A DNA stretch of 45,648 bases, taken from the NCBI GenBank assembly GCA_016182485.1, contig JACPGH010000005.1, positions 130,305 through 175,952 on the forward strand. Direction: 5' to 3'. Positions 5,683 through 33,806 of the stretch are shown piece by piece; positions within the stretch are counted from its first letter, which is position 1, and every line of letters begins with the position of its first letter. The position numbers and the translations under genes were made by a program. The notes under the pieces were generated by a model. It was given only the letters and a program-made list of their open reading frames with translations, was not told where the DNA came from and searched no databases. The stretch is from Candidatus Kaiserbacteria bacterium (GTDB lineage Bacteria > Patescibacteriota > Minisyncoccia > Phycocordibacterales > Phycocordibacteraceae).

Positions 5683-5694
5683 CCTGACGCGGCG

Positions 5695-6426: not shown

Positions 6427-6428
6427 CC

Positions 6429-6860: not shown

Positions 6861-6945
6861 GTCGATACTTGTACATTTGCGCCAGAAGAATCTTAAGCGT
6901 AGGATGCCGCCAGAAGCGCGCAGCTAAAGATCACGGGAGGAGCCG

Positions 6946-10899: not shown

Positions 10900-10901
10900 A
10901 C

Positions 10902-11444: not shown

Positions 11445-11529
11445 AAAGGAATGATACAAGCACTAGGCTCTAGGTACTAGCAGAGATATTTGTTGCGCGA
11501 ATCACACATATGCCGTACATTAGCCGAGT

Positions 11530-11796
11530 ATGGCAATCACCAGTTCCGCCAAGAAGGCAGCCAGAGTAGCGGCGCGTAAGCGCGTTTTTAACGTACGTCG
11601 CGCAAACGCGCTCCACGGCGCCACTAAGTCGCTCACGCAGGCGCTGGCCGCTAAAGATGTTGCAGGTGCCGAGAAATTGCTCCCTGCCGCTTATAAGGCG
11701 ATAGACAAGGCCTATAAGCGCGGCGTCATCAAAGGCAACACGGCAGCCCGCAAGAAATCCCGCCTCGCCCTCGCTATCGCCCGCGCCCGAGCTTAA
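11530..11796 (+). CDS. rpsT: 30S ribosomal protein S20
   Basis: MAITSSAKKAARVAARKRVFNVRR... basic helical protein typical of bS20. Confidence 0.9.
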   Translation: MAITSSAKKAARVAARKRVFNVRRANALHGATKSLTQALAAKDVAGAEKLLPAAYKAIDKAYKRGVIKGNTAARKKSRLALAIARARA

Positions 11797-11850: not shown

Positions 11851-12147
11851 ATGAAGCGCGGGAATAAAAAGCCCTCTCCAAAAAACGCTCCCTCCAAGGA
11901 CATGAGCGTCTCGGAACTCGCAGGGATGGTTGCGCGAGGATTCGCGGAAGTCAGTCAAGACTTCAAGGATGTCCGGCGGGAAATGGATGAGGGCTTCGCG
12001 AGAGTAGATGGGCGCGTCAACATTCTCGAACATAAAGTCGATAGGATACAGGACTCGGTGAATGAACTCACCTATGATTCGCGCAAGACGCGCACGCGCC
12101 TCGAAAATCTGGAATTGAAAGTATTCGGCTCGATCCAAGAGCCGTAG
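11851..12147 (+). CDS. Hypothetical coiled-coil protein
   Basis: ORF only. Start ambiguous (GTG 11833 or ATG 11851). No family recognised. Confidence 0.35.
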   Translation: MKRGNKKPSPKNAPSKDMSVSELAGMVARGFAEVSQDFKDVRREMDEGFARVDGRVNILEHKVDRIQDSVNELTYDSRKTRTRLENLELKVFGSIQEP

Positions 12148-12330
12148 TTTCAGTATTGTGCAGTATTCTTGAATTAATCCGAACGCGTTTCGCCGCCTGC
12201 GGCGGCGAGGAAGTCCCCCCGCGAAAATTCAGAAAGGCGGCGGCCTGTACTGAGCGAAGTCGAAGTGAGCCGCACCGCTGACAATTTCAAGTTTTTCTTT
12301 GGCGGCAAATTCAGAAATAAAAACTCTATG

Positions 12331-13041
12331 CTAATCGTAATACGGCAACAAATTATTAACTTCATTACCCTCGGCAAGCACTCTGCTGATGTTGAAAGCA
12401 TAAGCTCCTGCTTGGGATATAGTTTCGCGAGATCTCACCAATTGCGCAGGAGTTTTCTGTTGTTGGTTCGCCCAGTTTGGATATAGTAACAAATCTCTTT
12501 CTATGACCCATTGCCCACCAACTTTATCAATTTTTGCGGGAGTTAAAAGTTTCGATATCGAACTCGGCATTTGTGCATATGAATCGCTCGGTTCAATACC
12601 AGAAATAGGATTTGGTTTTAGTAAATGCCTCGTTGGTTCAGTAGTAAAAAACTTTACGAACGCAGAAGCTTGTTCCTTGGTATTAACCTGGCCAGTTATA
12701 AGAGAAAGTTCATCGACACCTTTTACTTGTGTAATATTTCCACTAGAAACTTCTAAATCAAATAATTTTCCCATAGGAACGATGCTCGCATCGTATTCCA
12801 TATATAACTTGTGGCCAGACTTTAGAGGAAAATTGACGGACAAAATTTTACCATTCAAAGATTGTGGTGTTATCGGCGCTATAGGGTTATTACCTGTCGT
12901 AACTACAGGTTGCTGGGGTGGAGGATTTGTAGTGGTTGGCGAAATATTTGGTGCAGAAATATTTTTAGAGACAAAAAAGTATGTTATTGCACCCAGAGCT
13001 ACAATTAGCACCAGTATCAACACGATATTTTTTTGATTCAT
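12331..13041 (-). CDS. Hypothetical N-terminally membrane-anchored protein (AT-rich gene)
   Basis: 236-aa ORF with TM helix IVLILVLIVALGAITYFFV and a Pro/Thr-rich linker. Composition contrasts with the flanks. Bracketed by a 13-bp inverted repeat. Confidence 0.55.
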   Translation of the reverse strand: MNQKNIVLILVLIVALGAITYFFVSKNISAPNISPTTTNPPPQQPVVTTGNNPIAPITPQSLNGKILSVNFPLKSGHKLYMEYDASIVPMGKLFDLEVSSGNITQVKGVDELSLITGQVNTKEQASAFVKFFTTEPTRHLLKPNPISGIEPSDSYAQMPSSISKLLTPAKIDKVGGQWVIERDLLLYPNWANQQQKTPAQLVRSRETISQAGAYAFNISRVLAEGNEVNNLLPYYD

Positions 13042-13222
13042 ATATTATTCGTTAATAATTTTAGATTTTATGATTAAAAAATTTTCTTTCCCCTCTCCTT
13101 CGCTAAAAGCTACGGACGGGCACGGCAAGCCGACGTTTTTCTACGGGTTCTTTTGCGGTTTTGAGCGGTGCGGCTCTGATCAATCATACCACCTCTCTTG
13201 TCCAGTGCTCGCGCCGTGACGC

Positions 13223-13251
13223 TTGCTTCCTAGGAGCGAATCTGATATAAT
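13223..13251 (+). promoter_or_regulatory. Sigma70-like promoter upstream of the Fic gene
   Basis: TTGCTT (13223..13228), 17-nt spacer, then TGaTATAAT (extended -10, hexamer 13246..13251). Confidence 0.5.
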
Positions 13252-13279
13252 CTCATATATCCCCTATACGAGATTAGTT

Positions 13280-14332
13280 ATGAATAAACTCGACAAAAGA
13301 ATACTAGAGCTGCCCACTTCGATATTAGATGTGCTCAGTCGGATCGACGAACTCAAAGGGCAGTGGGTCGGCGGGGCGCAGTTGAATCCCCAAGTATTGG
13401 GGAGATTGAAGCGTTCCACACTCGTCACATCAACGGGGGCGTCGACCCGCATTGAAGGCGCGAAACTATCGGACGAAGATGTGGAGAAATTGATGCGGGG
13501 GCTCTCAATGCAAAAATTCGCCGACCGCGACAAGCAGGAAGTGAGGGGGTATTACGAATTGCTTGAAAACGTGTTCGCGGCGTGGGAGAAAATCCCCCTT
13601 ACCGAGAGCACCGTCAAACATTTTCACAGCGAGCTGTTGAAGTACGTCGAGAAGGACACGCGGCATCGCGGAGAATACAAAAGAACCGAGAACCGCGTTG
13701 AGATGATCAACGAGGCCGGTGACTCGATCGGCGTTCTGTTCGACACCACGCCGGCGTACCTCGCGCCCAAGGAGATGCAAGACTTGGTGGAGTGGACACG
13801 GGACGCGCTCCAAACGCGCCGCTACCATCCGCTGCTCGTCATAGGCAACTTTCTCGTGGAGTTCTTGCAAATTCACCCGTTTCAAGACGGCAATGGGCGC
13901 TTGTCGCGCGTGCTCACCAACCTCATGATGCTTCAGGCGGGGTATTCATACATGCCATATGTGTCGCATGAGAAATTGGTGGAGGACGATAAAGCCGATT
14001 ACTATGTCGCGCTTCGCCGAAGCCAAAAGACTTTTAAAACTCAGTACGAGAAAGCAACTCCATGGTTAGAATTCTTCCTCAACGTACTGCTGGCACAGAT
14101 CAAAGAAGCCATCGCCCTGTTGTCCCGCGAGAATATCGAAAGAATACTGTCACCCAAACAGCTTGCGGTGTGGCAGTACGTGGAGAAATCTGCGGAAGCG
14201 ACGCCGCAAGAAATCTCAAAAGCAACCGGCGTATCGCGCCCGACCGTCTCCCAAGCGCTCACCGTACTCGTGCGTCTTAAGAAGGTCGAGCGTGTGGGTC
14301 AAGGCAGAACGACGCGGTATCGAAAGAGATAA
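13280..14332 (+). CDS. Fic family protein (class II, N-terminal inhibitory helix, C-terminal winged-helix)
   Basis: Catalytic motif HPFQDGNGRLSR. N-terminal STRIEG fits the (S/T)xxxE(G/N) autoinhibition motif. C-terminal wHTH-like region (GVSRPTVSQALTVLVRLKKVERVG). Confidence 0.9.
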   Translation: MNKLDKRILELPTSILDVLSRIDELKGQWVGGAQLNPQVLGRLKRSTLVTSTGASTRIEGAKLSDEDVEKLMRGLSMQKFADRDKQEVRGYYELLENVFAAWEKIPLTESTVKHFHSELLKYVEKDTRHRGEYKRTENRVEMINEAGDSIGVLFDTTPAYLAPKEMQDLVEWTRDALQTRRYHPLLVIGNFLVEFLQIHPFQDGNGRLSRVLTNLMMLQAGYSYMPYVSHEKLVEDDKADYYVALRRSQKTFKTQYEKATPWLEFFLNVLLAQIKEAIALLSRENIERILSPKQLAVWQYVEKSAEATPQEISKATGVSRPTVSQALTVLVRLKKVERVGQGRTTRYRKR

Positions 14333-20094: not shown

Positions 20095-20178
20095 TGCCGA
20101 AGGAGGGATTTGAACCCTCAAGAGGTTGCCCTCACTGCGCCCTGAACGCAGCGCGTCTGCCAATTTCGCCACTTCGGC
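20095..20178 (-). tRNA. tRNA-Leu (anticodon CAG)
   Basis: Hand-folded: acceptor GCCGAAG/CTTCGGC, anticodon loop UUCAGGG, long variable arm, T-arm GAGGGTTCAAATCCCTC. Confidence 0.9.
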
Positions 20179-20851
20179 TCAATTCGATTATGCGCATAGA
20201 TTTTAGAATCTTCAAATGCTTTCGGCGTAGACAAGGGAGTCCGTCGCGATAATAAAGAAGCGGGCATAGTTTCAAGGCTTCTCGCTTGGAATATTTCAAT
20301 TGAAAATACAGCCGATTTCCAGACGGGTTTAGATAACCATGCACCCCGGCTTTTTCCAGAATTTCTTTCTGGAGCCAAACCAAATAAGGCCGACTTGCAG
20401 ATATAAAGGAGATATAAAAACGAAAGCTGTTCTTAAATATGGAATCATAAAAAGAATACGTGCATCCGTCCCCATCAAAATAGCCGCGGAGAAAATCGAA
20501 GAAAAATTCATCGGGAATCGAGAGCCGCGAAATCGTTTTTGATTTCGCTGGCGATAAACCGAGACCTAACAAATAGCGATAGAAAAGCACGTCACCGAAT
20601 TGAGTGTGATAAGCCACGTTGCCCGCCCCAGAATATTTTGGACTTATTTTCGAATGAAGGCCGAGGCATTTCTTAAATAATGCGACCTGTGAGCGATCTT
20701 TCGATGTAAAGTCGATATGTCGGCCATCCTTTGAAAGACAGCCATCCGACACGATTAGACCAACAGCATAGGCGAATGTCGAAGACCATTCAATATGAAT
20801 CTTACCGAGAGGTTTTCCTGACACTGTCTCTACTGTAAAATACTGAGACAT
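20132..20851 (-). CDS. LAGLIDADG family homing endonuclease (double-motif)
   Basis: Two LAGLIDADG motifs (FAYAVGLIVSDGCLS and FLRGYFDGDGC). AT-rich. The last 47 nt, including the stop codon, lie inside tRNA-Leu(CAG). Confidence 0.85.
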   Translation of the reverse strand: MSQYFTVETVSGKPLGKIHIEWSSTFAYAVGLIVSDGCLSKDGRHIDFTSKDRSQVALFKKCLGLHSKISPKYSGAGNVAYHTQFGDVLFYRYLLGLGLSPAKSKTISRLSIPDEFFFDFLRGYFDGDGCTYSFYDSIFKNSFRFYISFISASRPYLVWLQKEILEKAGVHGYLNPSGNRLYFQLKYSKREALKLCPLLYYRDGLPCLRRKHLKILKSMRIIELSRSGEIGRRAAFRAQ

Positions 20852-22040: not shown

Positions 22041-22982
22041 TTATTCGCTAGGCCCCATGAGCTCCGCCAGCTGTCCGAGCAGCTTCTCCGCCGTGCGGAT
22101 CCGCTCGAGCTGCTGCTTCACCTGTTCGAGCTTCCCCTCAAGCTCCGCCTGCTCGGCGAGGATCGCATCTTTCCGGGCGATCAAGAACCTCGCTCGTTCG
22201 ATCGGATCCGCCGGCTCGAACTTCGGGTCGGTACTCGTGGATAGCATTCGCTCTCCGGCCTTGTACCAGCCGGCATGTTCGCGGCCCTCGGAGACATCCG
22301 GTTTGAGCCAGCCGTCGCTCACCATCTGCCGGGGTGATTCTCCCACGCCGCAGTCTCGGCGAATTTTCCCGAGGACCTTCTTGCCGACACTGCCAGGCCT
22401 CAGGGTGTTTGCCTCGGCGGCGGCGAGAAACGCCCTCGTAAAACAGTCCATCGCGCTCATTACTGCCTCCTTGGGAAACGGGGTTGTGAGGAAGTCCAGC
22501 ACGTCCTCGTCCACGCCACGCGCATCTGGCGCGGGCTCGGCTGTTACCTCGCGCGGCACACCGGCCACCGTCGGACGGCGCGGAGCAGGAGCAAGCAGGT
22601 CGCCGCACGACTCCAAGACTCGTTTTATTTGCCCTGTATCGAGGACAACAGGATGAACATTATGGTGCTTCCGGATCCTTTCCACATCCGCGTGGTGGAC
22701 GAACCGAGTGAGAAAGACGAGTCCGACTTTCTCCGTCAAGTTGGACGGGGAAGAGTCGAGGAACACGACCTTGCTGTCAGACAGTTGCCTCGTGAACTGG
22801 TTGTGATTCGAGTCCCGCCACCCTACAACGGCTATGGCGAACCCGGATCCGAGAACTTCGCGAGCCTTGCGCACCAGCGCTTGATAGTGTTGGTCAAGCA
22901 CCGCAACCTCCTCTCGAGCTATTTTGTAAGACCAGAACCCTGCGTTCCACAAATATGTTATTACAAATTCGCAATATGTCAA
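22041..22982 (-). CDS. Hypothetical protein (possible DUF2325-like N-terminal domain, C-terminal coiled coil)
   Basis: 313-aa ORF. IAVVGWRDSNHN...VGLVFLTRFVHHADVERIRK resembles DUF2325 by eye. C-terminal heptad-rich tail. Start uncertain. Confidence 0.45.
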   Translation of the reverse strand: MTYCEFVITYLWNAGFWSYKIAREEVAVLDQHYQALVRKAREVLGSGFAIAVVGWRDSNHNQFTRQLSDSKVVFLDSSPSNLTEKVGLVFLTRFVHHADVERIRKHHNVHPVVLDTGQIKRVLESCGDLLAPAPRRPTVAGVPREVTAEPAPDARGVDEDVLDFLTTPFPKEAVMSAMDCFTRAFLAAAEANTLRPGSVGKKVLGKIRRDCGVGESPRQMVSDGWLKPDVSEGREHAGWYKAGERMLSTSTDPKFEPADPIERARFLIARKDAILAEQAELEGKLEQVKQQLERIRTAEKLLGQLAELMGPSE

Positions 22983-23002
22983 ATAAATGGTACGGTAGAG
23001 AG

Positions 23003-23776
23003 ATGGAGCTCCCGATCCTGTACGAAGACGCAGATATCGTCGCGGTCAACAAGCCGGCGGGGCTTTTGACGCACTGTGCCCCGCCGAAGCCAGGCGAAGG
23101 GGGGTGCGGCGGGCGCACCGAAGAAGCTTCGGCGGAAGAATGGTTCGAAGAAAAATATCCGGAAGCCGACGGCGGATACGCGCACCGGCTCGATCGCGAT
23201 ACCTCGGGCGTGCTTGTATTCGCCAAAACGAAAGAAGCGTACGAATTCCTGCGCAAGGCTTTCTCCGATCGTGACGTGAAGAAAACCTATCTCGCGTTTG
23301 TCTACGGCGTGCCCAAAGAGAAAGAGGGAAGCATAGATTTCGACATCGGCCGCTCGAGAAAAGATTTTCGCCTCCGGAGCGCTCAACCAAAGGCGAAGGG
23401 CCGCTTGCGAGAAGCGATGACTCGCTACAAAGTTCTCGGCGAAGCCGAAGGATATTCTCTGCTGGAAGTCTTTCCGGAAACCGGCCGCACTCACCAGATC
23501 CGCGTGCACCTGAAAGCGATCCATCATCCGGTGGTCGGCGATGCCCTCTACGCTCCCGGTTTGTCCAAGAGCGGAGCGATTGGATACAAACCGCAGTCCC
23601 GTGGGACGCCGAATCTCGGTATCGATCGCCTCGGCCTCCATGCGTACTCGCTCGACCTACCCCTTCTCAAAGGCGGGCGGGTGCAAGTTACGGCTCCGGT
23701 GCCGACAGATCTGCTCCCGGCTTTTTCGTCTTTCCCGGAAGCAGTCACTCGTTTCAAAAACCCGCTCGCCGGATAG
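23003..23776 (+). CDS. RluA-family pseudouridine synthase
   Basis: HRLDRDTSGVLVFAKT catalytic Asp motif and GRTHQIRVH motif. Start at MELPILYED (ATG 23003), with TGGTACGGT 6 nt upstream. Confidence 0.85.
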   Translation: MELPILYEDADIVAVNKPAGLLTHCAPPKPGEGGCGGRTEEASAEEWFEEKYPEADGGYAHRLDRDTSGVLVFAKTKEAYEFLRKAFSDRDVKKTYLAFVYGVPKEKEGSIDFDIGRSRKDFRLRSAQPKAKGRLREAMTRYKVLGEAEGYSLLEVFPETGRTHQIRVHLKAIHHPVVGDALYAPGLSKSGAIGYKPQSRGTPNLGIDRLGLHAYSLDLPLLKGGRVQVTAPVPTDLLPAFSSFPEAVTRFKNPLAG

Positions 23777-23835: not shown

Positions 23836-24810
23836 ATGAAGTACTCCCTGCTCGCAATTCTGGCAATCTTCATCGCAGGCACTCTTGGGTTTATGTACCG
23901 CCAACAAATTATGTCTCTTTTAACTAAAAATACCGCACCGGAAATCGCCGAAGTCCGCGACTTCCAATGCGAAGGGATGGAAGGGTTCACGTTCAAATAT
24001 CCAGTGTTTAAGGGGTGGAGCCAGGAAAGACGGATCGAAGTTGAGCCGGGAAAGAAATGTAAATTATTCTTTATGAATCTCGCAGACCAGCGGGGATACA
24101 TAATCGCAGTGACGTATGACCAGATAAATAATCGCAACGACGGTTCGCTTTTCCCGGCGCCGCCTCTTGTCCCGACGAAAGACGCCAGGGAAAATATAAA
24201 CGGTGTTCTGTACGATATAACCCGGCCGGATATGCAAGGGAACGCAATTTATTTTTACTATAACTTCCGCGGGGACGGATTTTATAAGAATATGGATATG
24301 ATGAGCGTTGAATCATCTGGGTTGCCAGAATATAACGACGTCTTCCGGCAACAGGTGATCGAGAGTTTTAGGATTTCTTCCAATCAGACAGTGGAAAATT
24401 TCGCCCCTAAATTCGCAGGTAATTGGAAGTGGAGGGATGAAAAGTATGTCATGTTGGAAAAAGATGATGGCACAAAGGAGTATCAAGAGGCTAGCCTATA
24501 CTTGAATATCGAAATAGATGCAAGCATTAATTTAATCGGGGAATGGACGGCAGCAATGAGAGGGGGAAATAGGGTTGACATTTGTAAGAATGAGGCTGGC
24601 GATAAGCCATGCCTCTCGGGAGTTATAACTGGCGGTGAAGTAACTATGGACTTTGAAGACGGTTACAGGGGAGGGAGGGGCCGGCTAAAATTAGTATACG
24701 ATTCACAGTCAGATACTTTGCATTGGAAGATTCTGGAAAGGCCGCAAGGAGAATTTTATTTACCTGTTGAGGCAATCCTTGAAAGAATTCCGGAGCCCTA
24801 TTATATATGA
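23836..24810 (+). CDS. Island protein P1: signal-anchored mosaic-family protein (family module plus C-terminal extension)
   Basis: MKYSLLAILAIFIAG anchor. Conserved box PEIAEVRDFQCEGMEGFTFKYPVFKGW and closing box FRQQVIESFRI. The C-terminal roughly 140 aa are homologous to the P3 C-terminus (FAGNWKW...YDSQSDTLHWKI). Confidence 0.75.
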   Translation: MKYSLLAILAIFIAGTLGFMYRQQIMSLLTKNTAPEIAEVRDFQCEGMEGFTFKYPVFKGWSQERRIEVEPGKKCKLFFMNLADQRGYIIAVTYDQINNRNDGSLFPAPPLVPTKDARENINGVLYDITRPDMQGNAIYFYYNFRGDGFYKNMDMMSVESSGLPEYNDVFRQQVIESFRISSNQTVENFAPKFAGNWKWRDEKYVMLEKDDGTKEYQEASLYLNIEIDASINLIGEWTAAMRGGNRVDICKNEAGDKPCLSGVITGGEVTMDFEDGYRGGRGRLKLVYDSQSDTLHWKILERPQGEFYLPVEAILERIPEPYYI

Positions 24811-25757
24811 AATTTGTCTTTGTGATCCTAACATTGTTATTCCTAGGCGGAATAGGTTTTTCCTTTTATATAAGCAAGATGAAAACCCAGAACTTTTCTA
24901 GAGAAATTGCAGGCATGGAGAGGAAATCTTTTTGCCTTGGGCGCTTTCTTGTGGACATTCCGGCCAATGCCAGCTTGGCAAGTCAAAGTCAAACCATTGC
25001 CAATCTTAAAGTAGAAGTTGAGAAAAATGAGCCAAAAAAGACCGTTGAAGAGATAATACAGGCAATGACCTTAGAGATTTCTAAATTACCCGCGCCGGCC
25101 GATGAAAGTGCGACAATTATTAATTCAATATCGCTTGGAGATGAGGCCTGGGGAATTGTATTTCATGATTCGACTGAAGTTCTTGAATCAATTAAGTTGC
25201 GCGGCGTTCGGCTAGTTGGAGATAAGCTATTTCGAATTACAGCAGGCGCAGAGATAGATCAGGCGGATGAACTTATACGGTTGGCAAGATCTATCGCTTC
25301 AGCGATTAGCTTATCGAAAAATCCATTACAGCCAACTTTTTGCTTACAAGAAGGTTTTTTAAATCTTCCATTTGAATATCAAGAATCCGTAGAAGCCGCG
25401 TTTGACTTTGAAGACAGTTCTAAACTAACTATCGAAACCAGGAGTATTGGCAGGGAAACCCCGGTTAGTCTGGGAGCGGAAGCGAAAGAAACTTTGGCAA
25501 ATCTAGGGGCTAATGGAGTAAAGCCTGCGTTACTGCGCTCCGGAATGAGAAAAATTGCCGATATGTCAGGAGAAGAGCTTCTAATTGAGACGGCCGACGA
25601 GAGGAGTGCTTTGTTTCAGTGGAGATTTATTGGCGATCCTAAATCCGGTGAGCGCCCTTATATACAGATAACAGTCGATGCGAACGACGTGACAAACGCT
25701 AAGAAATTGATAACGATATGGGATTTGGTCCTTGACTCTTTGCGCCGTAATTTATGA
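24807..25757 (+). CDS. Island protein P2: signal-anchored protein resembling the Tli4-type T6SS immunity family
   Basis: MKFVFVILTLLFLGG anchor, then FCLGRFLVDIPANASL, which matches my memory of the C(V/I)GR(F/Y)L(I/V)D(L/I)P signature of Tli4 N-domains. ATGA overlap with P1. Confidence 0.6.
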   Translation: MKFVFVILTLLFLGGIGFSFYISKMKTQNFSREIAGMERKSFCLGRFLVDIPANASLASQSQTIANLKVEVEKNEPKKTVEEIIQAMTLEISKLPAPADESATIINSISLGDEAWGIVFHDSTEVLESIKLRGVRLVGDKLFRITAGAEIDQADELIRLARSIASAISLSKNPLQPTFCLQEGFLNLPFEYQESVEAAFDFEDSSKLTIETRSIGRETPVSLGAEAKETLANLGANGVKPALLRSGMRKIADMSGEELLIETADERSALFQWRFIGDPKSGERPYIQITVDANDVTNAKKLITIWDLVLDSLRRNL

Positions 25758-25912
25758 AATTTCGCATCTTTACCGTAATTACCATAATTTTCATAACCGG
25801 GGGCGTGGCGTTTTTCCCGCCCGTTCGCGCCCATCATTATAGAATAATTGAACGCAAGATGCCTGTAAACCGATATAATAAAAATGATGAAAACAAATCA
25901 AATTCTGCCTAG
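25754..25912 (+). pseudogene. Recombination scar / gene remnant (52-codon ORF)
   Basis: Family-type anchor MKFRIFTVITIIFITGGVAFF fused to a 47-bp copy (25826..25872) of the P6-end/P7-start junction (29184..29230, 4 mismatches), including MPVNR. Confidence 0.55.
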
Positions 25913-25946
25913 TTCGAACGAAAAAACAAGTAAAAAATATCTAGTA

Positions 25947-26855
25947 ATGGGTTCTTTTATGACATCGGGACTCCTGCTTCTCGGCGCAATTCTGGCAATC
26001 TTCATCGCAGGCACTCTTGGGTTTATGTACCGCCAACAAATTATGTCTCTTTTAACCAAAAATACCGCACCTGAAATAGTCGAAGTCCGCGACTTCCAAT
26101 GCGACGGTATGGAAGGGTTCACCTTCAAGTACCCGGTGTTTAAGGGGTGGGAGGCGAGTGAGAAAGTGGAATGCATAGATTCTGCCTCAGCCCGGTCCAA
26201 TTTATTTGAAGTTCATATAATAAAAGGAAAAGATTGGGATTTCGAGACCTTGGAGAATCCATCGGGGATTGTATACGGCCGAGTATATTCATCAGAGGAG
26301 GAATCAGCCATTTTTTTGGGAAAAGAAAGCGACGTCATTGTAACACTTAAGAATGCGGATAATCCCGAAAAGAGTTTCTCAAAAGACCTTTTCTGGCAGC
26401 AAGTGATTGAGAGTTTCAAGATCGTTGAAGTTTCTCAAGCTGTCAAATTTGCCGGTTCATGGATGTGGAGTGAGGAGGCATGGGGGCAGGATGTAGACAA
26501 ACTGCAGCCTTTTTTAGCAAGCGAGCAATTTAGTCTGGATCTGGAGGTTACTGGCAATAATATATCGGGTTCTCATTGCTGGAGTAAATCTTATTCCGTG
26601 GGAGAAAAAACGGAAACGCAAAAAGATTGTGGCGATCAAGAAAAGATTCCCAGTATCACTGGTAAGATTAACGGTTCGACCGCGGATGTGAGTTTTTCCA
26701 GTTATACGGACGGGACAACATACTTGGCAAGATTGGAATATGATTCCGCCTCCGATTCGCTCAGGTGGCAAATTACCGGCTACCCTAAAAAAATAAGCCA
26801 ATCTGGATTTCCCGCCGAAGTCTCGCTTCGGCGGAAACTAGGAACGCCTCTCTAA
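25947..26855 (+). CDS. Island protein P3: mosaic-family paralog of P1
   Basis: Nt 25986..26150 are about 94% identical to P1 nt 23854..24018. Boxes RDFQCDGMEGFTFKYPVFKGW and FWQQVIESFKIV are present. Start uncertain (ORF opens at 25884; ATGs at 25947 and 25959). Confidence 0.7.
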   Translation: MGSFMTSGLLLLGAILAIFIAGTLGFMYRQQIMSLLTKNTAPEIVEVRDFQCDGMEGFTFKYPVFKGWEASEKVECIDSASARSNLFEVHIIKGKDWDFETLENPSGIVYGRVYSSEEESAIFLGKESDVIVTLKNADNPEKSFSKDLFWQQVIESFKIVEVSQAVKFAGSWMWSEEAWGQDVDKLQPFLASEQFSLDLEVTGNNISGSHCWSKSYSVGEKTETQKDCGDQEKIPSITGKINGSTADVSFSSYTDGTTYLARLEYDSASDSLRWQITGYPKKISQSGFPAEVSLRRKLGTPL

Positions 26856-26856
26856 T

Positions 26857-27732
26857 ATGAAATTCTACATCCTTGCAATAGCTCTGATTCTTACCGCCCT
26901 CACCTTTTTCTACCGCCTAGAAATCATGTCTATGTTCTCTAAATCTACTGAACCGGAAATAGCTGAAACCCGCGACTTCCAATGCGAAGGGATGGAAGGG
27001 TTCACCTTCAAATACCCGGTGTTTAAAGGGTGGGAGGTATCTTTAATTAGGAATATTAGCGAAGTATGGGATATAGATGTTTTTAAAAACAAGAAGGGAA
27101 TGAATTCTGGTCCGGAAAAGTGCGAAATTTTACTTAGCGGTGCCAGTTTAAACCGTCCGGAGAAAGTTAAAGAAGAATTTCAGCCCCGCATTCTTGTGCA
27201 ACAAGATCAGCCTCACGTGGCGATAAGCGAGAATCCTCACGGAATAAGATACGAAAAGCTTTCGGAGGATAAATATTTTTTCAATCTATCAAGTTACGCA
27301 GTTAACATCGAGTTATTAAACATTAACGAAAAGTACAGCTTCCCCAAAGAGATCTTTTGGCAGCAGGTGATAGAGAGTTTCAAAATTGTCGATTCGAATG
27401 AAAGGAATACTTCAATCAGGCTAGAAGATGAATTGTTGGATACTGCTTGGGTTCAGTTAGATCACGATGGGAATGAAACAGGTTTCGAAATAAATTTCCG
27501 AAAAACAAAAAACAACGATCCTTCTCATAATTTCTATGATTATCAAGATTATCTTCATCAAAGACCGGGCGTGAGCGGATACTGGAGGGTTGATGAGAGT
27601 ACCGTTACGGTTACCCCATATCCTTCAAATATGCCTCCTGTGATATATACGAACGTGATTATTGCGGGGGATATATTAAATGTGACCGATTCGCTTGATG
27701 GTGCTAAAGTTAAATTTAAGAAAATACGGTAG
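26857..27732 (+). CDS. Island protein P4: mosaic-family paralog with a distinct C-terminal extension
   Basis: MKFYILAIALILTAL anchor, PEIAETRDFQCEGMEGFTFKYPVFKGW, FWQQVIESFKIV. The core and C-terminus are unrelated to P1 by eye. Confidence 0.7.
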   Translation: MKFYILAIALILTALTFFYRLEIMSMFSKSTEPEIAETRDFQCEGMEGFTFKYPVFKGWEVSLIRNISEVWDIDVFKNKKGMNSGPEKCEILLSGASLNRPEKVKEEFQPRILVQQDQPHVAISENPHGIRYEKLSEDKYFFNLSSYAVNIELLNINEKYSFPKEIFWQQVIESFKIVDSNERNTSIRLEDELLDTAWVQLDHDGNETGFEINFRKTKNNDPSHNFYDYQDYLHQRPGVSGYWRVDESTVTVTPYPSNMPPVIYTNVIIAGDILNVTDSLDGAKVKFKKIR

Positions 27733-27749
27733 CGCTTAACTATATTCGA

Positions 27750-28634
27750 ATGAAATACCCTCTCCTCGCAATTCTGATAATCCTAATCCTTGGCGGCGTT
27801 GTCTTTTTCTATCAAGGGAAGTTCATGCCTTCCTTTTCGAGTGAATCGCATGTCGTTTCTCAAGTTGTATTTGGGGAAGAAGCAAGAAAGTCATTTACAT
27901 ACAAGGGTATGCAAATTCATCCTTTTTGCCTGGACTTCATGAGGAATGGAAATGAGTCCGGTATCAATGATAAAGAGTTCCAAATCAATCTAGATGTATG
28001 TTCAGCGACTACGAGCCTCGTTGAGGAAAATCAAGGCAGTCTGCATGCCGAGTATCCGCCGTCTGAGGGATTATTCGGAGGAGATTCAAATTATAAAGTC
28101 TTGGCCCAAAAGGAAAGAGAATTTTTGGTGAAGATGACCACAAACGGAGGTGGAACCGGATTTTTTGATAGTATCGGATGGGTAAGCGTGGAGGGAAATG
28201 AAATTCGCATGAGAAGAGAAGTTGGAGTAGGTGATCGGTGTAACGGAGGATTTACGGAAAACGTCAATTCGGAGACCGGGAACTTGGAAATCAGCGTGAA
28301 TGTTACCCCTGCGGATATTATTGAACTAGCCGCTAGCAGTACAATCAAGGCGTATGAGGACTTAGAGGCGAGCGCGAATAGCTGTTTTGGAACTGCTAAT
28401 TATTTATATAATATCAAGGATGAAGAATTAACATTCGATTTCGTTGACCTGGGATCAGGAGAAGGTATGCCTCAAATAGCCGACGAAAATTCAGCATGGA
28501 CTAATGGATACGCGTATCAGCCTTGTTTCAATAGATTGTTCAACTCTTACATTTCATCCGGAAAAACCAATTTTAAGATTGAGGAGCTGCGTGAGTTTGG
28601 AGAGAAATTTTTATCAACTTGCGTGAAAGAATAA
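27750..28634 (+). CDS. Island protein P5: signal-anchored hypothetical protein (different ectodomain)
   Basis: MKYPLLAILIILILGG anchor. Cys-containing ectodomain (..GGGTGFFDSIGW..GDRCNGGF..). No family recognised. Confidence 0.6.
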   Translation: MKYPLLAILIILILGGVVFFYQGKFMPSFSSESHVVSQVVFGEEARKSFTYKGMQIHPFCLDFMRNGNESGINDKEFQINLDVCSATTSLVEENQGSLHAEYPPSEGLFGGDSNYKVLAQKEREFLVKMTTNGGGTGFFDSIGWVSVEGNEIRMRREVGVGDRCNGGFTENVNSETGNLEISVNVTPADIIELAASSTIKAYEDLEASANSCFGTANYLYNIKDEELTFDFVDLGSGEGMPQIADENSAWTNGYAYQPCFNRLFNSYISSGKTNFKIEELREFGEKFLSTCVKE

Positions 28635-28635
28635 G

Positions 28636-29205
28636 ATGAAATATTTTATTTTATTTGTCGTGATCATGCTTGGCGGTACAGCTTATTTCTATCGCCAAGA
28701 AATTATGAATATGTTTTCAAAAACCGAGCCTCAAATTCTCGAAACCCGCGACTTCGAGTGCGACGGCATGGAAGGGTTCACGTTCAAATACCCGGTATTC
28801 AGAGGGTGGACCTTTGAAGATCCTAGAGCAGCCGCGGATGGAACTTGTTACATTGATATTAGAAGCAATGATGAGCCGTTTTCCGCCCTTGTAAGATATA
28901 TAAAAATCAGTGCTCAAATTATGCGCAACAGCGCGGACACTAATATAAGTATATCTCCGCCATTCATTCCAACGGATAATGCCAAACTCAATCCGCAAAA
29001 AGTTATATATGACAGAGGAAGAAGCGATACAGAAAATGGGACTACCTCTACATATTTTTATGACGGCTCGGAAGGAGATATTTTTATGGTTACAATTGAG
29101 CTTTTAGCCCATGGAAACTTCCCTGAAGACACGTTTTGGCAGGAAGTGATCGAAAGTTTTAAATTAATTAGCGATAAGAAGGGCGCGCCCATCATTATGG
29201 AATAA
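28636..29205 (+). CDS. Island protein P6: minimal mosaic-family member (family module only)
   Basis: MKYFILFVVIMLGG anchor, ETRDFECDGMEGFTFKYPVFRGW, FWQEVIESFKLI. Its core aligns with the P1 core (PPF/LxPT..A...V.YD..R.D). Confidence 0.7.
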   Translation: MKYFILFVVIMLGGTAYFYRQEIMNMFSKTEPQILETRDFECDGMEGFTFKYPVFRGWTFEDPRAAADGTCYIDIRSNDEPFSALVRYIKISAQIMRNSADTNISISPPFIPTDNAKLNPQKVIYDRGRSDTENGTTSTYFYDGSEGDIFMVTIELLAHGNFPEDTFWQEVIESFKLISDKKGAPIIME

Positions 29206-29216
29206 TCGAATGCAAG

Positions 29217-30698
29217 ATGCCTGTAAACCGTAAAAATTTAACAATCGGCTTTCTACTTCCGCTAGCGCTGTATCTGCTTGGCGTGCTTGTTGAACTTTTG
29301 TTTTATTATTTCCATTATCGAAGCGGATTTATTCCTGATACAGTCTACATAAGCATTCCATTTTCTTATTTTCATAATTTTCTGATCGCGTATGCCGTCC
29401 TTTTCGGCGTTTCGTCCTTCTTTTTAAGAAGTAATTTATGGCGGGTTGGGCTTTCCATTTTCATACCGATCTTTCTCTGGGGAGCGTTTGCTGCTTTTGA
29501 TTATATTAGTCCGCCTCGATCTTTCGGCATTCCTCTTTCTTTGGTCATCGGCACTTTTCCTTCTATTGAAATAAGCAGGGTAGTTGAAGAACTTGCATTA
29601 AGTCAGATTTCTAAGACAGGGCCCGATCTTGTTAAGTCCGATCTTTTATCCCTTATCAATGATGAAAAATTGGACGTGGACCCTAGTCAAGTAATCTTGG
29701 ATAAAGAAGGGAAAATATTGCTTGTGGCTAGTGTGACAAATCCCCGAATTTCATCGGTTATCAAAATCACTCGTTTAAATTCCGATGGGAGCCTTGACGC
29801 GTCTTTTGGCGGAAACACTAAATATTTATCACTTGACGGCAGAATATTTTTTGGAGACGCGGAAAATTTCTTTCTTTTGCAACGTAAAGCGTGGCTGCAA
29901 AAGTCCGTTATATCTTATGAAAACGCCGAAATTGTCAAAGCGTCTAATTTTGAAGAACCCTCAGAGATAATTTTAAACGAGGAAACCGCTCTTATCGAAG
30001 CGGATGGGCGTTTATTCGCGGCGGGAGTCGTTGGGAAAATAGACGAGAAACAGGGTTTTATTAGCTCGCACGGCAGCATCTTAGAAATGCTTGAAGACCC
30101 GCCTTTTTATCGAGTTTTAGTAAATACGGAGTCCGTGTTTAGTTCCGCCGAGTTTCGCGACCGGAGCATCAAGCAGTTCCGCATGCTTCCCGATGGAGAA
30201 ATCCTCGTTCTTTTTTTCCTCGACAGACTTACGGAGGAGCGCGGGTGGAATTTTGGTTCAGGAATCGCGAAATTCGATGCCAGCGGAAAATTAGTTGCGG
30301 AATATGTTCACGGTAATTCTTTTGGCGGCGATTCACTGCTTCGGAAAATTAATTTCGATAGTTTCGTGACCGCAGACGGAGCGGTTTCTGACGCATATGG
30401 TACTCGAATTTTCGAACCATCTTTTTGGATTGACCGCGAAGGAGGGATTATTTCTACGGCCCGCATTGCAGATCCGATCCGCAAAACCCATCTAGTTCGA
30501 ATTATGCCAGAAGGGGAATTTGATGCGGAATTCTCGAAAAACGCGCGCGTCGCTTTCCCCTTTGATATCTCAACATTTTCTATCACGCAAGCTGATGAAA
30601 TCCTCCTGGTTGGAACTGATAAAAATAAAAAACCATCGCTACAAATACGAATTTTAGAGCCAAATGGTAAATTAAAACGAGTAATTATCGGTAATTGA
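29217..30698 (+). CDS. Island protein P7: polytopic membrane protein with delta-60-repeat-like motifs (possible beta-propeller)
   Basis: About 4 predicted N-terminal TM helices. Repeated motifs LNSDGSLDASFGGN, FDASGKLVAEY, IMPEGEFDAEFSKN and LEPNGKLKRVI resemble the delta-60 repeat (..dG.lD.sFg..G). Confidence 0.6.
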   Translation: MPVNRKNLTIGFLLPLALYLLGVLVELLFYYFHYRSGFIPDTVYISIPFSYFHNFLIAYAVLFGVSSFFLRSNLWRVGLSIFIPIFLWGAFAAFDYISPPRSFGIPLSLVIGTFPSIEISRVVEELALSQISKTGPDLVKSDLLSLINDEKLDVDPSQVILDKEGKILLVASVTNPRISSVIKITRLNSDGSLDASFGGNTKYLSLDGRIFFGDAENFFLLQRKAWLQKSVISYENAEIVKASNFEEPSEIILNEETALIEADGRLFAAGVVGKIDEKQGFISSHGSILEMLEDPPFYRVLVNTESVFSSAEFRDRSIKQFRMLPDGEILVLFFLDRLTEERGWNFGSGIAKFDASGKLVAEYVHGNSFGGDSLLRKINFDSFVTADGAVSDAYGTRIFEPSFWIDREGGIISTARIADPIRKTHLVRIMPEGEFDAEFSKNARVAFPFDISTFSITQADEILLVGTDKNKKPSLQIRILEPNGKLKRVIIGN

Positions 30699-30709
30699 TG
30701 AATGATAAT

Positions 30710-31192
30710 ATGAAATACTCTCTCCTTGCGATTTTACTGATTCTCATCTTTGGCGTTGCCGCTTTTCTCTATCGCGGAAAACTTCCATCCCCTTTCCTTG
30801 AGACTTCTGGGCCCGACAGTTTCAGGATAGTTCCTACTGCGGAAAGTTGGCTGGGAACGTACACTTTTTACGAATTTGCCGAACCGAATCGAGCTTGGAC
30901 TTACGATTTGAGCGTTAAGCAAGAGGGAAGTGCTATTGTGGCCGATTTGGATATTGATGGGTTTCAAACTATAATAAGAATCAGAGCGAAGCCGGTAATA
31001 AACGCGAATGGCGATCTGGACTTGATTTTTGATTCTTACCGACCGGAGCACTCTCTCACGCGGTACGCGATTGGCGATCTTCTTTTTACCCTATCCAAAC
31101 TGGATACCGCCGGAAAATACAGTGTTCGCTGGGGTAAGCTCAAGGCCAATATAAAAGCCAGTCATTATGAATTCGCAGGTCCGTTAAAATAG
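30710..31192 (+). CDS. Island protein P8: signal-anchored small beta-rich protein (hypothetical)
   Basis: MKYSLLAILLILIFG anchor (the ORF track opens at 30695). The WLGTYTFYEF...IDGFQT...LFTLSK...VRWGKL pattern is loosely similar to the C-terminal modules of P1 and P3. Confidence 0.6.
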   Translation: MKYSLLAILLILIFGVAAFLYRGKLPSPFLETSGPDSFRIVPTAESWLGTYTFYEFAEPNRAWTYDLSVKQEGSAIVADLDIDGFQTIIRIRAKPVINANGDLDLIFDSYRPEHSLTRYAIGDLLFTLSKLDTAGKYSVRWGKLKANIKASHYEFAGPLK

Positions 31193-31297
31193 CAATATGC
31201 AGGCGCGGTCTGCCGGGAGGACTTTGTTGACAAGCGCGCCGCGGGGATGGCGAATTTCTCCTAACTGCAACGCGGCTATTGGCATTGGTGCGGAGGC

Positions 31298-31777
31298 ATG
31301 GTAATGTACGCGAGCATGGAAAAGGTCATCACGCCGGTCAACGCCGAAGGGCGCGCGAAGCTCGGGGTACGGGCTGGCGATACCGTGCGCGTCATCCAGA
31401 ACATCATCGAGCTCAAGCGCGGCCGCGGTACCGACAAGAAAGAGAAGACGACAAAGAGCGCCCGCCAGCAAGTTTTCGAAGGGCTAGTGCTCGCCGTGAA
31501 GCACGGTACAGAGGCTGGAGCCACCTTTACAGTCCGTGCGGTTCTCTCGGGCAATATAGGCGTCGAGAAGACCTTCCCGCTCTATTCTCCCGCCATCGCC
31601 TCGATCGAGATCGTGAAGCGCTCGGACGTCCGCCGCGCCAAGCTCTATTTCATCCGCAATAAGGCGACAAAGGAGGTGCGCCGCCAGCTGCGCAATGCGC
31701 GGCTCATGCATCTCGAGAGTGACGAGTCAGTCGCTCCGGCTGAGGCGGTTTCTCCGGAGGCCGAAGTTGCGGCGTAG
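31298..31777 (+). CDS. rplS: 50S ribosomal protein L19
   Basis: FEGLVLAVKHG..TFTVRAV..IGVEKTFPLYSP.I..IEIV..SDVRRAKLYFIR. Contains a Lys-rich insertion and a C-terminal tail. Start ambiguous (ATG 31298, 31304 or 31316). Confidence 0.85.
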   Translation: MVMYASMEKVITPVNAEGRAKLGVRAGDTVRVIQNIIELKRGRGTDKKEKTTKSARQQVFEGLVLAVKHGTEAGATFTVRAVLSGNIGVEKTFPLYSPAIASIEIVKRSDVRRAKLYFIRNKATKEVRRQLRNARLMHLESDESVAPAEAVSPEAEVAA

Positions 31778-31845
31778 CGCCGCGTTTGTCCACATCTGCG
31801 GGTATTTTCTCAAAAGTAAACTGGTAGACGCAATATACTTGAGCG

Positions 31846-32514
31846 ATGGGTAAACGTGGGCCGAAGCCAAAAAGGGGGGAAGTGGTATGGTCACCGGAGC
31901 TGGCATATGCAGTTGGACTTATTGCAACGGACGGCAGTCTTTCTAAAACAGGGCGCCATATCAATCTTACGTCGAAGGATCGTTCTCAATTAAAGACGTT
32001 TTTGAGGTGTATTGATAGAGAAAAAGTACGCATTACTAAAAAACGAGGTTTTTATCGCAAATGGATTACTCATGTTCAAGTAGGCGATGTTGTTCTCTAC
32101 CGTTTTTTGCTCTCAATCGGGCTCGCACCGAACAAAACAAAAACAATCGGAATTCTTGATGTTCCAGATAGATATATTTTTGATTTCTTACGCGGACACC
32201 ACGATGGAGACGGGTGTTTTTATAGTTATTTTGATCCGCGATGGAAGAAGAGCTTCGTATTTTATCTAGTGTTTGTTTCCGCCAGTGCGAACCATATATA
32301 CTGGATACGCCAATTATTAGAGCGATTGCTCGGCGTAAGAGGGCACATTACAACTGCGAAAAGCAATTGCGTTCTCCAGTTAAAATATGGGAAACGAGAA
32401 GCGCTTCAGATTCTTAAGAAGTTATATGCTGATTCTAAAGCGCCTTGTCTTGCTAGAAAGAGATTGAAAATAGAGCGCGCATTACGTATAGTAGGAGAAT
32501 CGTTACCAAACTGA
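31846..32514 (+). CDS. LAGLIDADG family homing endonuclease (paralog of 20132..20851)
   Basis: LAYAVGLIATDGSLS and FLRGHHDGDGC motifs. Alignable along its full length with the other copy. AT-rich. TATACT lies 6 nt upstream of the ATG. Confidence 0.85.
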   Translation: MGKRGPKPKRGEVVWSPELAYAVGLIATDGSLSKTGRHINLTSKDRSQLKTFLRCIDREKVRITKKRGFYRKWITHVQVGDVVLYRFLLSIGLAPNKTKTIGILDVPDRYIFDFLRGHHDGDGCFYSYFDPRWKKSFVFYLVFVSASANHIYWIRQLLERLLGVRGHITTAKSNCVLQLKYGKREALQILKKLYADSKAPCLARKRLKIERALRIVGESLPN

Positions 32515-32533
32515 CGATGTATCGATAAATAAT

Positions 32534-32617
32534 GCCCGGGTGTTGAAATCGGTAGACATTACGCCTTGAGGTGGCGTAGCCCGAAAGGGCGTGGAGGTTC
32601 GAGTCCTCTCCCGGGCA
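32534..32617 (+). tRNA. tRNA-Leu (anticodon GAG)
   Basis: Hand-folded: acceptor GCCCGGG/CCCGGGC, anticodon loop UUGAGGU, long variable arm, T-arm GGAGGTTCGAGTCCTCT. Confidence 0.9.
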
Positions 32618-33170: not shown

Positions 33171-33806
33171 ATGAGGAAATTTCTATACGGTCTCGCGCTT
33201 GCTGTCGTGATTGTCGCCGTCGGCCTGCTGTATCGGTACGTCGTAGAACGCCCTCCCGAACAAGTCGCGTGCCCGCTTGATGCCAAAGTGTGTCCGGACG
33301 GCACGGCGGTCGGCCGCACCGGGCTTTCCTGCACCTTCCCGGTCTGTCCGCCGCCGAACACCTCGCTATCGGATATCGGCGTCGCATTCGCGATCCCCGC
33401 AGGCTTTTCTCCCGGAGAAGCGACTGATCCGGCAACGGTCGCCGCGTACGACAACTTCGCTTCCTCGACATCCGCGAGCATCGTTATTCGTCGTTACTCG
33501 GTCAACGCTTCGAGCACTCCCCTTGACGTCATTCGACAGACGGCGATAGGGGGAGCCTCCGGAGAGCCGCTTCCGTCCACCGCCTTTTCTTCCGAAGTCA
33601 TCGGGAACTACCGCTTCACGGTAGCTGCCATCGGGCGATTCGAAGGGGTCATAGATACGGCTTATTACTTTGCTCGCAATAAAGACGTATTACGCTTCGA
33701 TGCTATTGACCGCGGCGCAGACTGGACCAACCCCTCACTCGGCGTTTCCAAACTACCGGCGCATGCGAGCCTTCGCGCTCTCCTTTCGACACTGCAGGCC
33801 CGGTAG
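33171..33806 (+). CDS. Membrane-anchored secreted protein (hypothetical; Cys-rich CP.DAK.CPDG motif)
   Basis: N-terminal TM helix, ACPLDAKVCPDGTAVGRTGLSCTFPVCP motif, then a beta-rich domain starting GVAFAIPAGF. Confidence 0.55.
   Translation: MRKFLYGLALAVVIVAVGLLYRYVVERPPEQVACPLDAKVCPDGTAVGRTGLSCTFPVCPPPNTSLSDIGVAFAIPAGFSPGEATDPATVAAYDNFASSTSASIVIRRYSVNASSTPLDVIRQTAIGGASGEPLPSTAFSSEVIGNYRFTVAAIGRFEGVIDTAYYFARNKDVLRFDAIDRGADWTNPSLGVSKLPAHASLRALLSTLQAR

Follow-up and report, generated by a model that had tools for sequence, protein, structure and literature searches.

Why does a block of AT-rich DNA with eight genes reading in one direction lie between two housekeeping genes of a Kaiserbacterium, where did it come from, and what might its products do? 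The block occupies 23.8-31.2 kb of a 45,648-nucleotide (nt) stretch of Candidatus Kaiserbacteria bacterium (GenBank assembly GCA_016182485.1, contig JACPGH010000005.1, positions 130,305 to 175,952 of the forward strand). We call this whole stretch the window, the 7.4 kb block the island, and its genes P1-P8; coordinates refer to the window unless another contig is named. An original prediction, made from the letters of the window, described the island as an acquired or fast-evolving expansion of a cell-surface family and proposed host contact, antigenic variation or orphan immunity as its role. The results given below provide good support for acquisition by horizontal transfer and define a protein family with a predicted Mog1/PsbP-like fold, of which the island holds four old paralogues; as for function, we favour, at just short of an even chance, an acquired orphan poly-immunity-like array of surface-anchored proteins.

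The insertion was established by comparison with 80 related Kaiserbacteria/Paceibacteria loci (~20 kb each, ~1.1 Mb in total), of which 75 contain both rluA and rplS. In all 75, rplS directly follows rluA on the same strand across a gap of 9-901 nt, usually ~40 nt, compared to 7.5 kb in the window; thus, the 7.5 kb found here represent an insertion. No homologues of P1-P8 were found in the 80 loci. Sliding-window GC content is 0.57-0.60 on both flanks and 0.39-0.45 across ~24000-31000 (~43% for the island versus ~58% for the host), and the switch at each border is completed within ~100 nt. The GC content of third codon positions (GC3) is 0.43±0.035 for the eight island genes (range 0.38-0.50) and 0.69±0.05 for 18 flanking genes (range 0.57-0.76), with no overlap between the ranges. 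The composition drop that had been read from counts of single lines is therefore borne out by sliding windows and by a GC3 26 points below that of the flanks, and the closed junction in 75 of 75 relatives, the lack of P1-P8 homologues there and the GC3 offset together substantiate the acquired origin. Since the island's ~43% GC fits the contigs that otherwise carry the family described below (35-52% GC) and not its own host, the donor was probably AT-rich DNA from lower-GC Patescibacteria.

The borders carry no flanking direct repeats of 7 nt or longer. The earlier statement that no integrase, tRNA or flanking repeat marks them holds for all three at the borders themselves; a tRNA-Leu gene does occur 1.3 kb downstream of the island, past rplS and a LAGLIDADG gene, hence away from the border. 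A phage or plasmid origin was rejected: the DNA matched nothing in collections of phages or plasmids, PHROGs gave no match for the island proteins, and no viral contig bore the family. Matches in BFVD were weak and confined to phage lipoproteins (~2e-3), PADLOC gave no match for the island proteins, and NCBIfam gave no useful one. Among the relatives, 8 of the 75 have an enlarged rluA-rplS spacer (288-901 nt), and some of these spacers contain unrelated open reading frames (ORFs), for a transposase-like protein in locus L030 (spacer 10681-11582), a HAM1-like protein in L079 and a small membrane protein in L060; the junction thus appears to be an occasional insertion point.

The island and its borders contain the following features:

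22955..23776, + strand: rluA (pseudouridine synthase), left flank, host GC; Pfam PseudoU_synth_2, E-value (E) 1e-32
23836..24810, + strand: P1, predicted N-terminal anchor, PsbP-like family domain (residues 21-181) and a C-terminal module (C-module) of 143 amino acids (aa) with 2 Cys
23928..24018, + strand: N-box DNA repeat D2, with copies at 26060-26150, 26943-27033 and 28719-28809; encodes (T)EPEI.E.RDF.C.GMEGFTFKYPVFKGW
24325..24380, + strand: closing-box DNA repeat D3, with copies at 26373-26428, 27337-27392 and 29116-29171; encodes F(W/R)Q(Q/E)VIESF(K/R)
24807..25757, + strand: P2, predicted N-terminal anchor and Tli4/TplEi-like two-domain protein; ATGA overlap with P1
25754..25912, + strand: decayed remnant ORF with anchor MKFRIFTVITIIFITGGVAFF..., recognised by translation, alignment and repeat D5
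25884..26855, + strand: P3, family paralogue with rearranged N-terminus (alternative start 25959) and P1-like C-module
26857..27732, + strand: P4, family paralogue with its own distinct 113-aa C-module
27750..28634, + strand: P5, predicted anchored protein with 6 Cys and an ectodomain without assignable family
28636..29205, + strand: P6, minimal family member, i.e., anchor and single PsbP-like domain
29217..30698, + strand: P7, predicted multi-pass membrane N-terminus and DUF5122/delta-60 beta-propeller repeat region
30710..31192, + strand: P8, predicted anchor and DUF5991 domain; likely start at the ATG of 30710, in an ORF that is open from 30695 (TTG)
31298..31777, + strand: rplS (ribosomal protein L19), right flank, host GC; Pfam Ribosomal_L19

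All eight predicted genes are present as plus-strand ORFs. The tight spacing of -4 to +17 nt that had been claimed for them is found at six of the seven junctions and fails at P2-P3, where a gap of at least 126 nt contains the decayed ORF. A promoter and terminator scan of the island gave no signal above chance. The island is probably a single transcription unit. A common N-terminal anchor, said to open every product, does not open P7, which has three to four hydrophobic segments instead (10-28, 52-70 and 74-97); the N-terminus of P3 is rearranged. On hydrophobicity alone, all products are predicted to be outward-facing, seven of them anchored and P7 multi-pass. The Cys count is even in all six Cys-containing ectodomains, which fits disulfide-bonded extracytoplasmic proteins, and the protein sizes, 160-324 aa, are compatible with inhibitor-type proteins.

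Both boxes, the N-box and the closing box, recur in the paralogues P1, P3, P4 and P6 in exactly the form that had been quoted, with a strongly diverged region in between. At the DNA level, the boxes are repeats D2 (91 nt, four copies, 81-90% identity) and D3 (56 nt, four copies). Each pair of copies differs by 4-7 synonymous codon changes in the N-box and by 3-5 in the closing box, suggesting that the boxes are conserved by selection on the protein and not by recent gene conversion. The predicted homology of the P1 and P3 C-modules was recovered (E 4e-12), and the P1 module has no match in Pfam. The loose likeness of P8 to these modules could not be detected (E 4.3), P8 being a DUF5991 protein.

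A profile hidden Markov model of the four core domains was searched against 1.84 billion representative proteins and gave 190 matches at E≤1e-3, 86 of them at E≤1e-10, with the window's four included. Single-sequence searches with P1 and P2 returned the window's own proteins alone; the family emerged only with the profile search. Its members are 150-300 aa long, and in 85 of 140 full-length domain matches a hydrophobic N-terminal stretch precedes the domain. Family-wide, the proteins have the box ETRDFSC(P/E)GMxGFTFKYPVFKGWE, two nearly invariant Cys, a poorly conserved middle and the ending FFQTVIESFK. About one third of members have C-terminal extensions; the 44 that were examined fall into 26 unrelated clusters, and the C-modules of ten other members contain no Pfam domain. 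Pfam has no model for the family: of 74 members, a single one matches PsbP_2 (E 0.002), and the window paralogues have no match at E≤1. Searches of PDB sequences and profiles with the family gave no match either, and by sequence it falls in none of the curated families PsbP, PsbP_2, DcrB and LpqN; in the sources, members are called nothing beyond 'hypothetical protein'.

Contigs bearing the family have 35-52% GC, mostly 36-43%, and several show Patescibacteria-like gene content. The usual number is one or two copies per contig, with tandem genes in L087 and a two-domain protein in L093; a metagenome scan with a 17-sequence alignment found seven loci. Another contig, L089, has at 9864-10429 a member without anchor, directly after a tRNA-Arg gene and with a DDE transposase 2 kb downstream. 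This contig (37% GC) also carries a histone-fold gene and is therefore probably archaeal (DPANN-like), and the family may cross domains among ultrasmall symbionts. Three giant proteins, P0005 (6128 aa), P0028 (1752 aa) and P0108 (2072 aa), have 8-25 short matches each to the family profile, which may point to a beta-hairpin motif, akin to the N-box, that is repeated within them, or may be spurious.

The original prediction had left open a fast-evolving local expansion with conserved ends and variable cores. This part did not survive: the closest relative of P4 is a protein from outside the window (P0006; 50% identity, 159 bits, versus 92 bits to its best paralogue), which indicates that the window paralogues are old, and the pattern of conserved ends and variable core is common to the whole family in other genomes and is thus no evidence of local cassette shuffling.

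The structure of the family domain was modelled with AlphaFold2 for P6, from a 27-sequence alignment, and the model was compared to PDB structures with Foldseek. The model has a mean predicted local distance difference test score (pLDDT) of 87.1 and a predicted template modelling score of 0.77; it consists of an N-terminal helix (2-28), an antiparallel sheet and a C-terminal helix (164-174), the N-box forming the first beta-strands and the closing box the final helix. The best matches are BT_1490 (3.3e-4), the immunity protein Tsi3 of a type VI secretion system (T6SS; 5.3e-4) and several PsbP structures (from 1.3e-3), followed by weaker matches to LpqN, Mtc28, Apa and Mog1p (E 4e-3 to 3e-2). 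The domain of P1, P3, P4 and P6, as modelled for P6, accordingly has a Mog1/PsbP-like fold, and the earlier PsbP-like guess is upheld at fold level; first strands of the type 'GF.F.YP..W' are typical of the PsbP-like superfamily. A full-length P1 model from four sequences was too poor for use (pLDDT 55.8). The same guess had been extended to two GC-rich genes at 33171 and 34820. Sequence gives this no support: profile comparison of the family with P2, with the 33171 product (also as a 13-sequence profile) and with the 34820 product revealed no relationship, and Pfam and PDB sequence searches likewise gave no link.

The other four proteins are a mixed set. P2 passes the cut-offs of both Pfam models of the Tli4 family (Tli4_C, 51.5 bits with a cut-off of 25; Tli4_N, 29.3 bits with a cut-off of 26.5), and its residues 41-288 (~250 residues) align with the PDB chains 5h7y_A (E 1.2e-5) and 4r1d_B (E 1.6e-5). 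The entries 5H7Y and 4R1D represent the immunity protein of the T6SS phospholipase TplE/Tle4 (PMC5611513). No other relative of P2 was found at E≤1e-3 among 5.8 billion proteins. There is no Tle4-family phospholipase or T6SS gene beside P2 or elsewhere in the window, its neighbours beyond the island being housekeeping genes. Judged by sequence, P2 is a Tli4/TplEi-like phospholipase-immunity homologue, and would be an orphan. P8 matches Pfam DUF5991 (E 3.4e-17, 63 bits), for which no paper was found in the literature, and has no match among PDB sequences. P7 matches Pfam DUF5122 (E 4e-9) and, at 36.5 bits and thus under the 76.5-bit cut-off of that model, TIGR02608 (E 3.3e-9); PDB sequences gave no match. 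P5 has no match in Pfam, NCBIfam, PDB sequences, PHROGs or PADLOC, and its leader shows a weak likeness to the family leader. P8 has an anchor homologous to those of P1 and P4, though its ectodomain is unrelated to theirs.

The island preserves traces of its own rearrangement. The 52-codon ORF at 25754-25912, which follows P2 via an ATGA overlap, begins with the anchor MKFRIFTVITIIFITGGVAFF and continues with a copy of the P6 end, the spacer and the first P7 codons. The scar copy at 25826-25879 (repeat D5, 54 nt) is 89% identical to the P6-end/P7-start junction at 29184-29237. As read from these copies, a second P6-P7-like segment was formerly located between P2 and P3 and has mostly been deleted. 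At their 5' ends, P1 and P3 share a stretch of 166 nt with 94% identity (repeat D1), suggesting one recent exchange. The mosaic pattern is thus the combined result of a family-wide structural constraint, one recent 5' exchange and old duplication followed by deletion, and not of active cassette shuffling. Devices for switching were not found in the island: Tandem Repeats Finder gave only trivial rows (scores ≤33), the longest homopolymer is 7 nt, and the inverted repeats are weak (70-75%), do not surround promoters and form no invertible element.

Population variation is also nearly absent. Independent evidence consisted of per-run Logan assemblies, i.e., short-read contigs only. The exact P6 protein was found on seven and the exact P2 protein on six other Logan contigs, and altogether nine independent contigs of the same population, assembled from seven or more sequencing runs, proved collinear with the window, with one substitution in the island and, in one contig, a short indel. 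Contig L094 is 99.9% identical to window positions 26976-32613, from P4 through P8 and rplS to the LAGLIDADG gene and tRNA-Leu; contig L099 covers 23961-26014. The junction between P8 and rplS was recovered independently in L094 and L095. Such contigs break off within the repeated N-box, as is expected from repeats of 91-166 nt. Within rplS, at 31339-31351, the window differs from two independent contigs by four substitutions (C>G, C>T, C>G, G>A) in 13 nt; over 4 kb of island, the same two contigs show merely one difference. The lack of a switching device, together with almost no population variation, argues against antigenic variation. The cassette shuffling that had been suggested is accordingly not supported: no switch device was found, nine contigs are collinear, and the boxes differ at synonymous sites.

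What the family does may be approached through its neighbours in other genomes. On a 38% GC contig, L103, a same-strand array (4919-6951) begins with a gene for a small protein with weak RHS-repeat similarity and continues with Colicin_immun, an anchored 165-aa protein, a second Colicin_immun-like protein (recognised by eye, with no Pfam match) and a family member. The anchored neighbour has an unrelated ectodomain behind the family leader, as do P2, P5 and P8 in the window, and the array looks like a mixed immunity locus. The Colicin_immun match of L103 (38.6 bits) and a Barstar match in L081 (34.6 bits) both lie in same-strand arrays with family members; a search of the control loci (1.1 Mb, a weak control) for similar immunity sequences found none. 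AbiEii toxin genes lie within a few genes of family members in L081, L085, L086 and L104, and MazEF and HepT/MNT modules also occur near members. The family tends to favour accessory or defence-rich regions.

Starting from the insertion, the gene anatomy, the fold, the family memberships and the history of duplication and deletion, which the comparisons above establish, we infer a function in immunity for the array. In this proposal, the island would equip the cytoplasmic membrane, on its outer face, with an assortment of small proteins of binding type: four old Mog1/PsbP-fold paralogues with a Cys pair each, a Tli4/TplEi-like protein, a DUF5991 protein, a beta-propeller-repeat protein and a six-Cys protein. 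Each ectodomain would bind an incoming extracytoplasmic toxin, sent by competitors or by the host bacterium, and so neutralise it; a Tle4-type phospholipase would be the target of P2, and the paralogues would owe their specificity to the variable middle regions and C-modules. This proposal is favoured because the sole specific family assignment, that of P2, is to an immunity family with no effector nearby; because the fold of the paralogues is common to the known immunity protein Tsi3; and because the array is foreign, mixed, interspersed with decayed remnants and composed of small proteins. In polyimmunity loci, PsbP/MOG1 domains have been recorded as fusion partners of immunity proteins (PMC3482391). 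Actinomycetota hosts attack Saccharibacteria via an Esx-secreted effector, according to a recent preprint (PMC13622651), and attack of this kind by a host would be a plausible selective reason for an immunity array.

Several observations weigh against the proposal. The orphan immunity-type array that had been listed among the possible roles is backed by P2, which passes both Tli4 cut-offs and matches solved chains, and by the Colicin_immun and Barstar neighbours of the family; nevertheless, only one of the eight proteins falls in a named immunity family, and the assignments of P5, P7 and P8 are uninformative on immunity. The Mog1/PsbP fold serves quite different roles, as in PsbP, LpqN, DcrB and Mog1. 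The structural matches have Foldseek probabilities of ~1.0 at the top ranks and 0.94-0.99 for the others, with modest template modelling scores (TM-scores) of 0.3-0.5. Throughout the family, the N-box is very strongly conserved, which suggests that members have a conserved partner in common; such a partner would be ill-fitting for an arms-race interface. To our knowledge, Patescibacteria have neither a T6SS nor a classical periplasm, so that a Tle4-type threat is hypothetical. Immunity neighbours were seen in 2 of ~9 informative contexts, so that the association is anecdotal. The island differs from the recombinase-associated Bacteroidales type of acquired interbacterial defence (AID) in that Pfam and NCBIfam revealed no integrase, transposase or recombinase within it or next to it. 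It should also be noted that look-ups of P1 and of three RluA start variants, for the left junction or an empty-site variant, returned no record, so that independent contigs leave the left junction unconfirmed.

Of the other explanations, a repertoire of surface proteins for contact with host cells is the most serious, though we regard it as unlikely. Patescibacteria live attached to other bacteria, and the variable ectodomains would in this case recognise or attach to the host and so broaden or change the host range. All eight products are predicted to be anchored or multi-pass and outward-facing, the middle regions vary, the 44 C-terminal extensions fall in 26 unrelated clusters, and the fold matches include mycobacterial proteins that bind host molecules, among them Apa; moreover, the family resides mostly on low-GC contigs, several of them Patescibacteria-like and one probably DPANN-like archaeal, both groups being ultrasmall symbionts. 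Yet the proteins are small and showed no adhesin-type domain or repeat, the only recognisable family of P2 is an immunity family, the neighbours elsewhere are cytoplasmic immunity and toxin-antitoxin genes and not adhesins or pili, and variation at the population level is lacking. Less probable still are envelope helpers similar to LpqN and DcrB, i.e., accessory copies of membrane-tethered chaperones or adaptors for the export of lipids, lipoproteins or cell-wall material. The conserved partner that such helpers would have is consistent with the very strong conservation of the N-box and the C-terminal helix, the Foldseek matches include LpqN and Mtc28, and many genomes have just one or two copies amid ordinary genes. 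Against helpers of this kind stand the arrival on foreign DNA alongside a Tli4-like gene, the preference for accessory regions with toxin-antitoxin and immunity genes and the absence of the family from the 80 related loci, each of which spans just ~20 kb and not a whole genome.

Two further explanations are largely excluded. In a phase- or antigen-variable surface system, comparable to the mycoplasma Vsp/Vlp proteins, the leader and the boxes would serve as recombination sites that shuffle cassettes. A leader common to unrelated ectodomains, the near-identical 5' ends of P1 and P3 and a deletion scar that testifies to past recombination are what such a system would leave behind; nonetheless, we consider it very improbable, since neither a site-specific recombinase nor repeats of the invertible or tandem kind nor long homopolymers were found in the island, the boxes differ at many synonymous sites, the paralogues are old, the conserved ends are family-wide, and gene order is the same in nine independent contigs with a single island substitution. 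An assembly or binning chimera, i.e., a fragment of a lower-GC organism joined into the contig, is the least probable of all and has next to no claim on belief. The sharp GC shift at both borders, the internal repeats of 91-166 nt, which break short-read assemblies, and the unconfirmed left junction would be compatible with it. However, two independent per-run assemblies run from the island through rplS and the LAGLIDADG gene to tRNA-Leu at 99.9% identity, and this reproduction of the right junction argues against a chimera; in addition, the insert sits precisely in one intergenic spacer, and host sequence resumes on both sides in the order of the relatives.

Several described systems come close to the island or its proteins. 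P2 resembles Tli4/TplEi (PA1509; Pfam Tli4_N and Tli4_C; PDB 4R1D, 5H7Y and 5H7Z) in both domains, in the alignment to the solved chains and in its export or anchor signal; it differs in being very divergent, in being predicted as membrane-anchored instead of soluble and periplasmic, in the lack of a Tle4-like effector or T6SS nearby and in its Patescibacterium host. The paralogues resemble the Mog1/PsbP-like proteins (PsbP, Tsi3, BT_1490, LpqN/Mtc28/Apa and DcrB/DUF1795) in predicted fold and in predicted extracytoplasmic location, Tsi3 conferring immunity to the muramidase Tse3, and are set apart by their own ETRDFSCPGM box, the Cys pair, the single-pass anchor and the frequent, variable C-modules. 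As an acquired, tightly packed, same-strand array of mixed small proteins, the island is similar to the polyimmunity loci of polymorphic toxin systems (Zhang et al. 2012, PMC3482391). Orphan immunity arrays provide a further parallel, in that the island includes a recognised immunity family without a cognate toxin and with decayed remnants, and in that its main family is interleaved with immunity genes elsewhere. AID clusters of Bacteroidales were reportedly described by Ross et al. in 2019. Compared to such arrays and clusters, the island lacks recombinase or mobile-element genes, has one named immunity family and encodes products that are all predicted to be anchored; a literature search found no report of such arrays in Patescibacteria. 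With the Vsp/Vlp-type lipoproteins of mycoplasmas it shares clustered genes and a conserved N-terminal leader on divergent mature regions, and it differs from them in having no lipobox, no switch elements and no variation between samples, and in probably being a single operon.

The surroundings of the island are typical of such genomes. The closest relatives of the window's RluA (55-69% identity) are from metagenome-assembled genomes of Kaiserbacteria, Paceibacterota and other Patescibacteria. Housekeeping genes fill the remaining window (PilB, PolA, a Mur ligase, RuvA, RuvX, PilM, UppS, L19, NusG, L11, ThyA, SHMT and ArgRS), together with nine tRNA genes, and annotation of the 45 kb revealed no toxin, lipase, T6SS or other secretion-system effector, integrase or transposase. 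The GC-rich gene at 33171-33806 encodes an anchored, Cys-rich product that is kept in 46 of the 80 related loci (55-64% identity) and has no match in Pfam or PDB sequence searches; this putative surface protein belongs to the core of the lineage and has no sequence relationship with the island family. Two free-standing LAGLIDADG homing-endonuclease genes, each in its own low-GC patch, adjoin tRNA genes: one at 20132-20851 (- strand), next to tRNA-Leu/Val, and one at 31846-32514 (+ strand), next to tRNA-Leu. The latter lies directly 3' of rplS, 650 nt past the end of the island; a homologue is present in 19 of the 80 related loci. A further low-GC patch (0.42) at 12000-13500 contains a 236-aa ORF (12331-13041, - strand) with no Pfam match, adjoining a Fic/DOC and winged-helix gene at 13223-14332, and may be another small acquired segment.

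What does the island mean for the biology of these organisms? It represents a clean, well-delimited gene gain in a reduced genome, the cargo of which is, by prediction, made up wholly of outward-facing membrane proteins, and it has led to the definition of a sizeable, previously unannotated protein family with a confident fold model. The furthest-reaching interpretation, which we regard as doubtful, is that the island serves interbacterial defence, being the first acquired island of this kind to be recognised in a Patescibacterium, and that the family represents lineage-wide, surface-displayed toxin neutralisers, exchanged horizontally by ultrasmall episymbionts against the effectors of hosts and competitors. 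If the products are immunity proteins, they would be concrete candidates for the counter-defence of episymbionts; should they prove to be something else, the family would still be a new cell-surface marker of these organisms. Either way, the island indicates that AT-rich DNA can enter higher-GC lineages without obvious mobile-element machinery.

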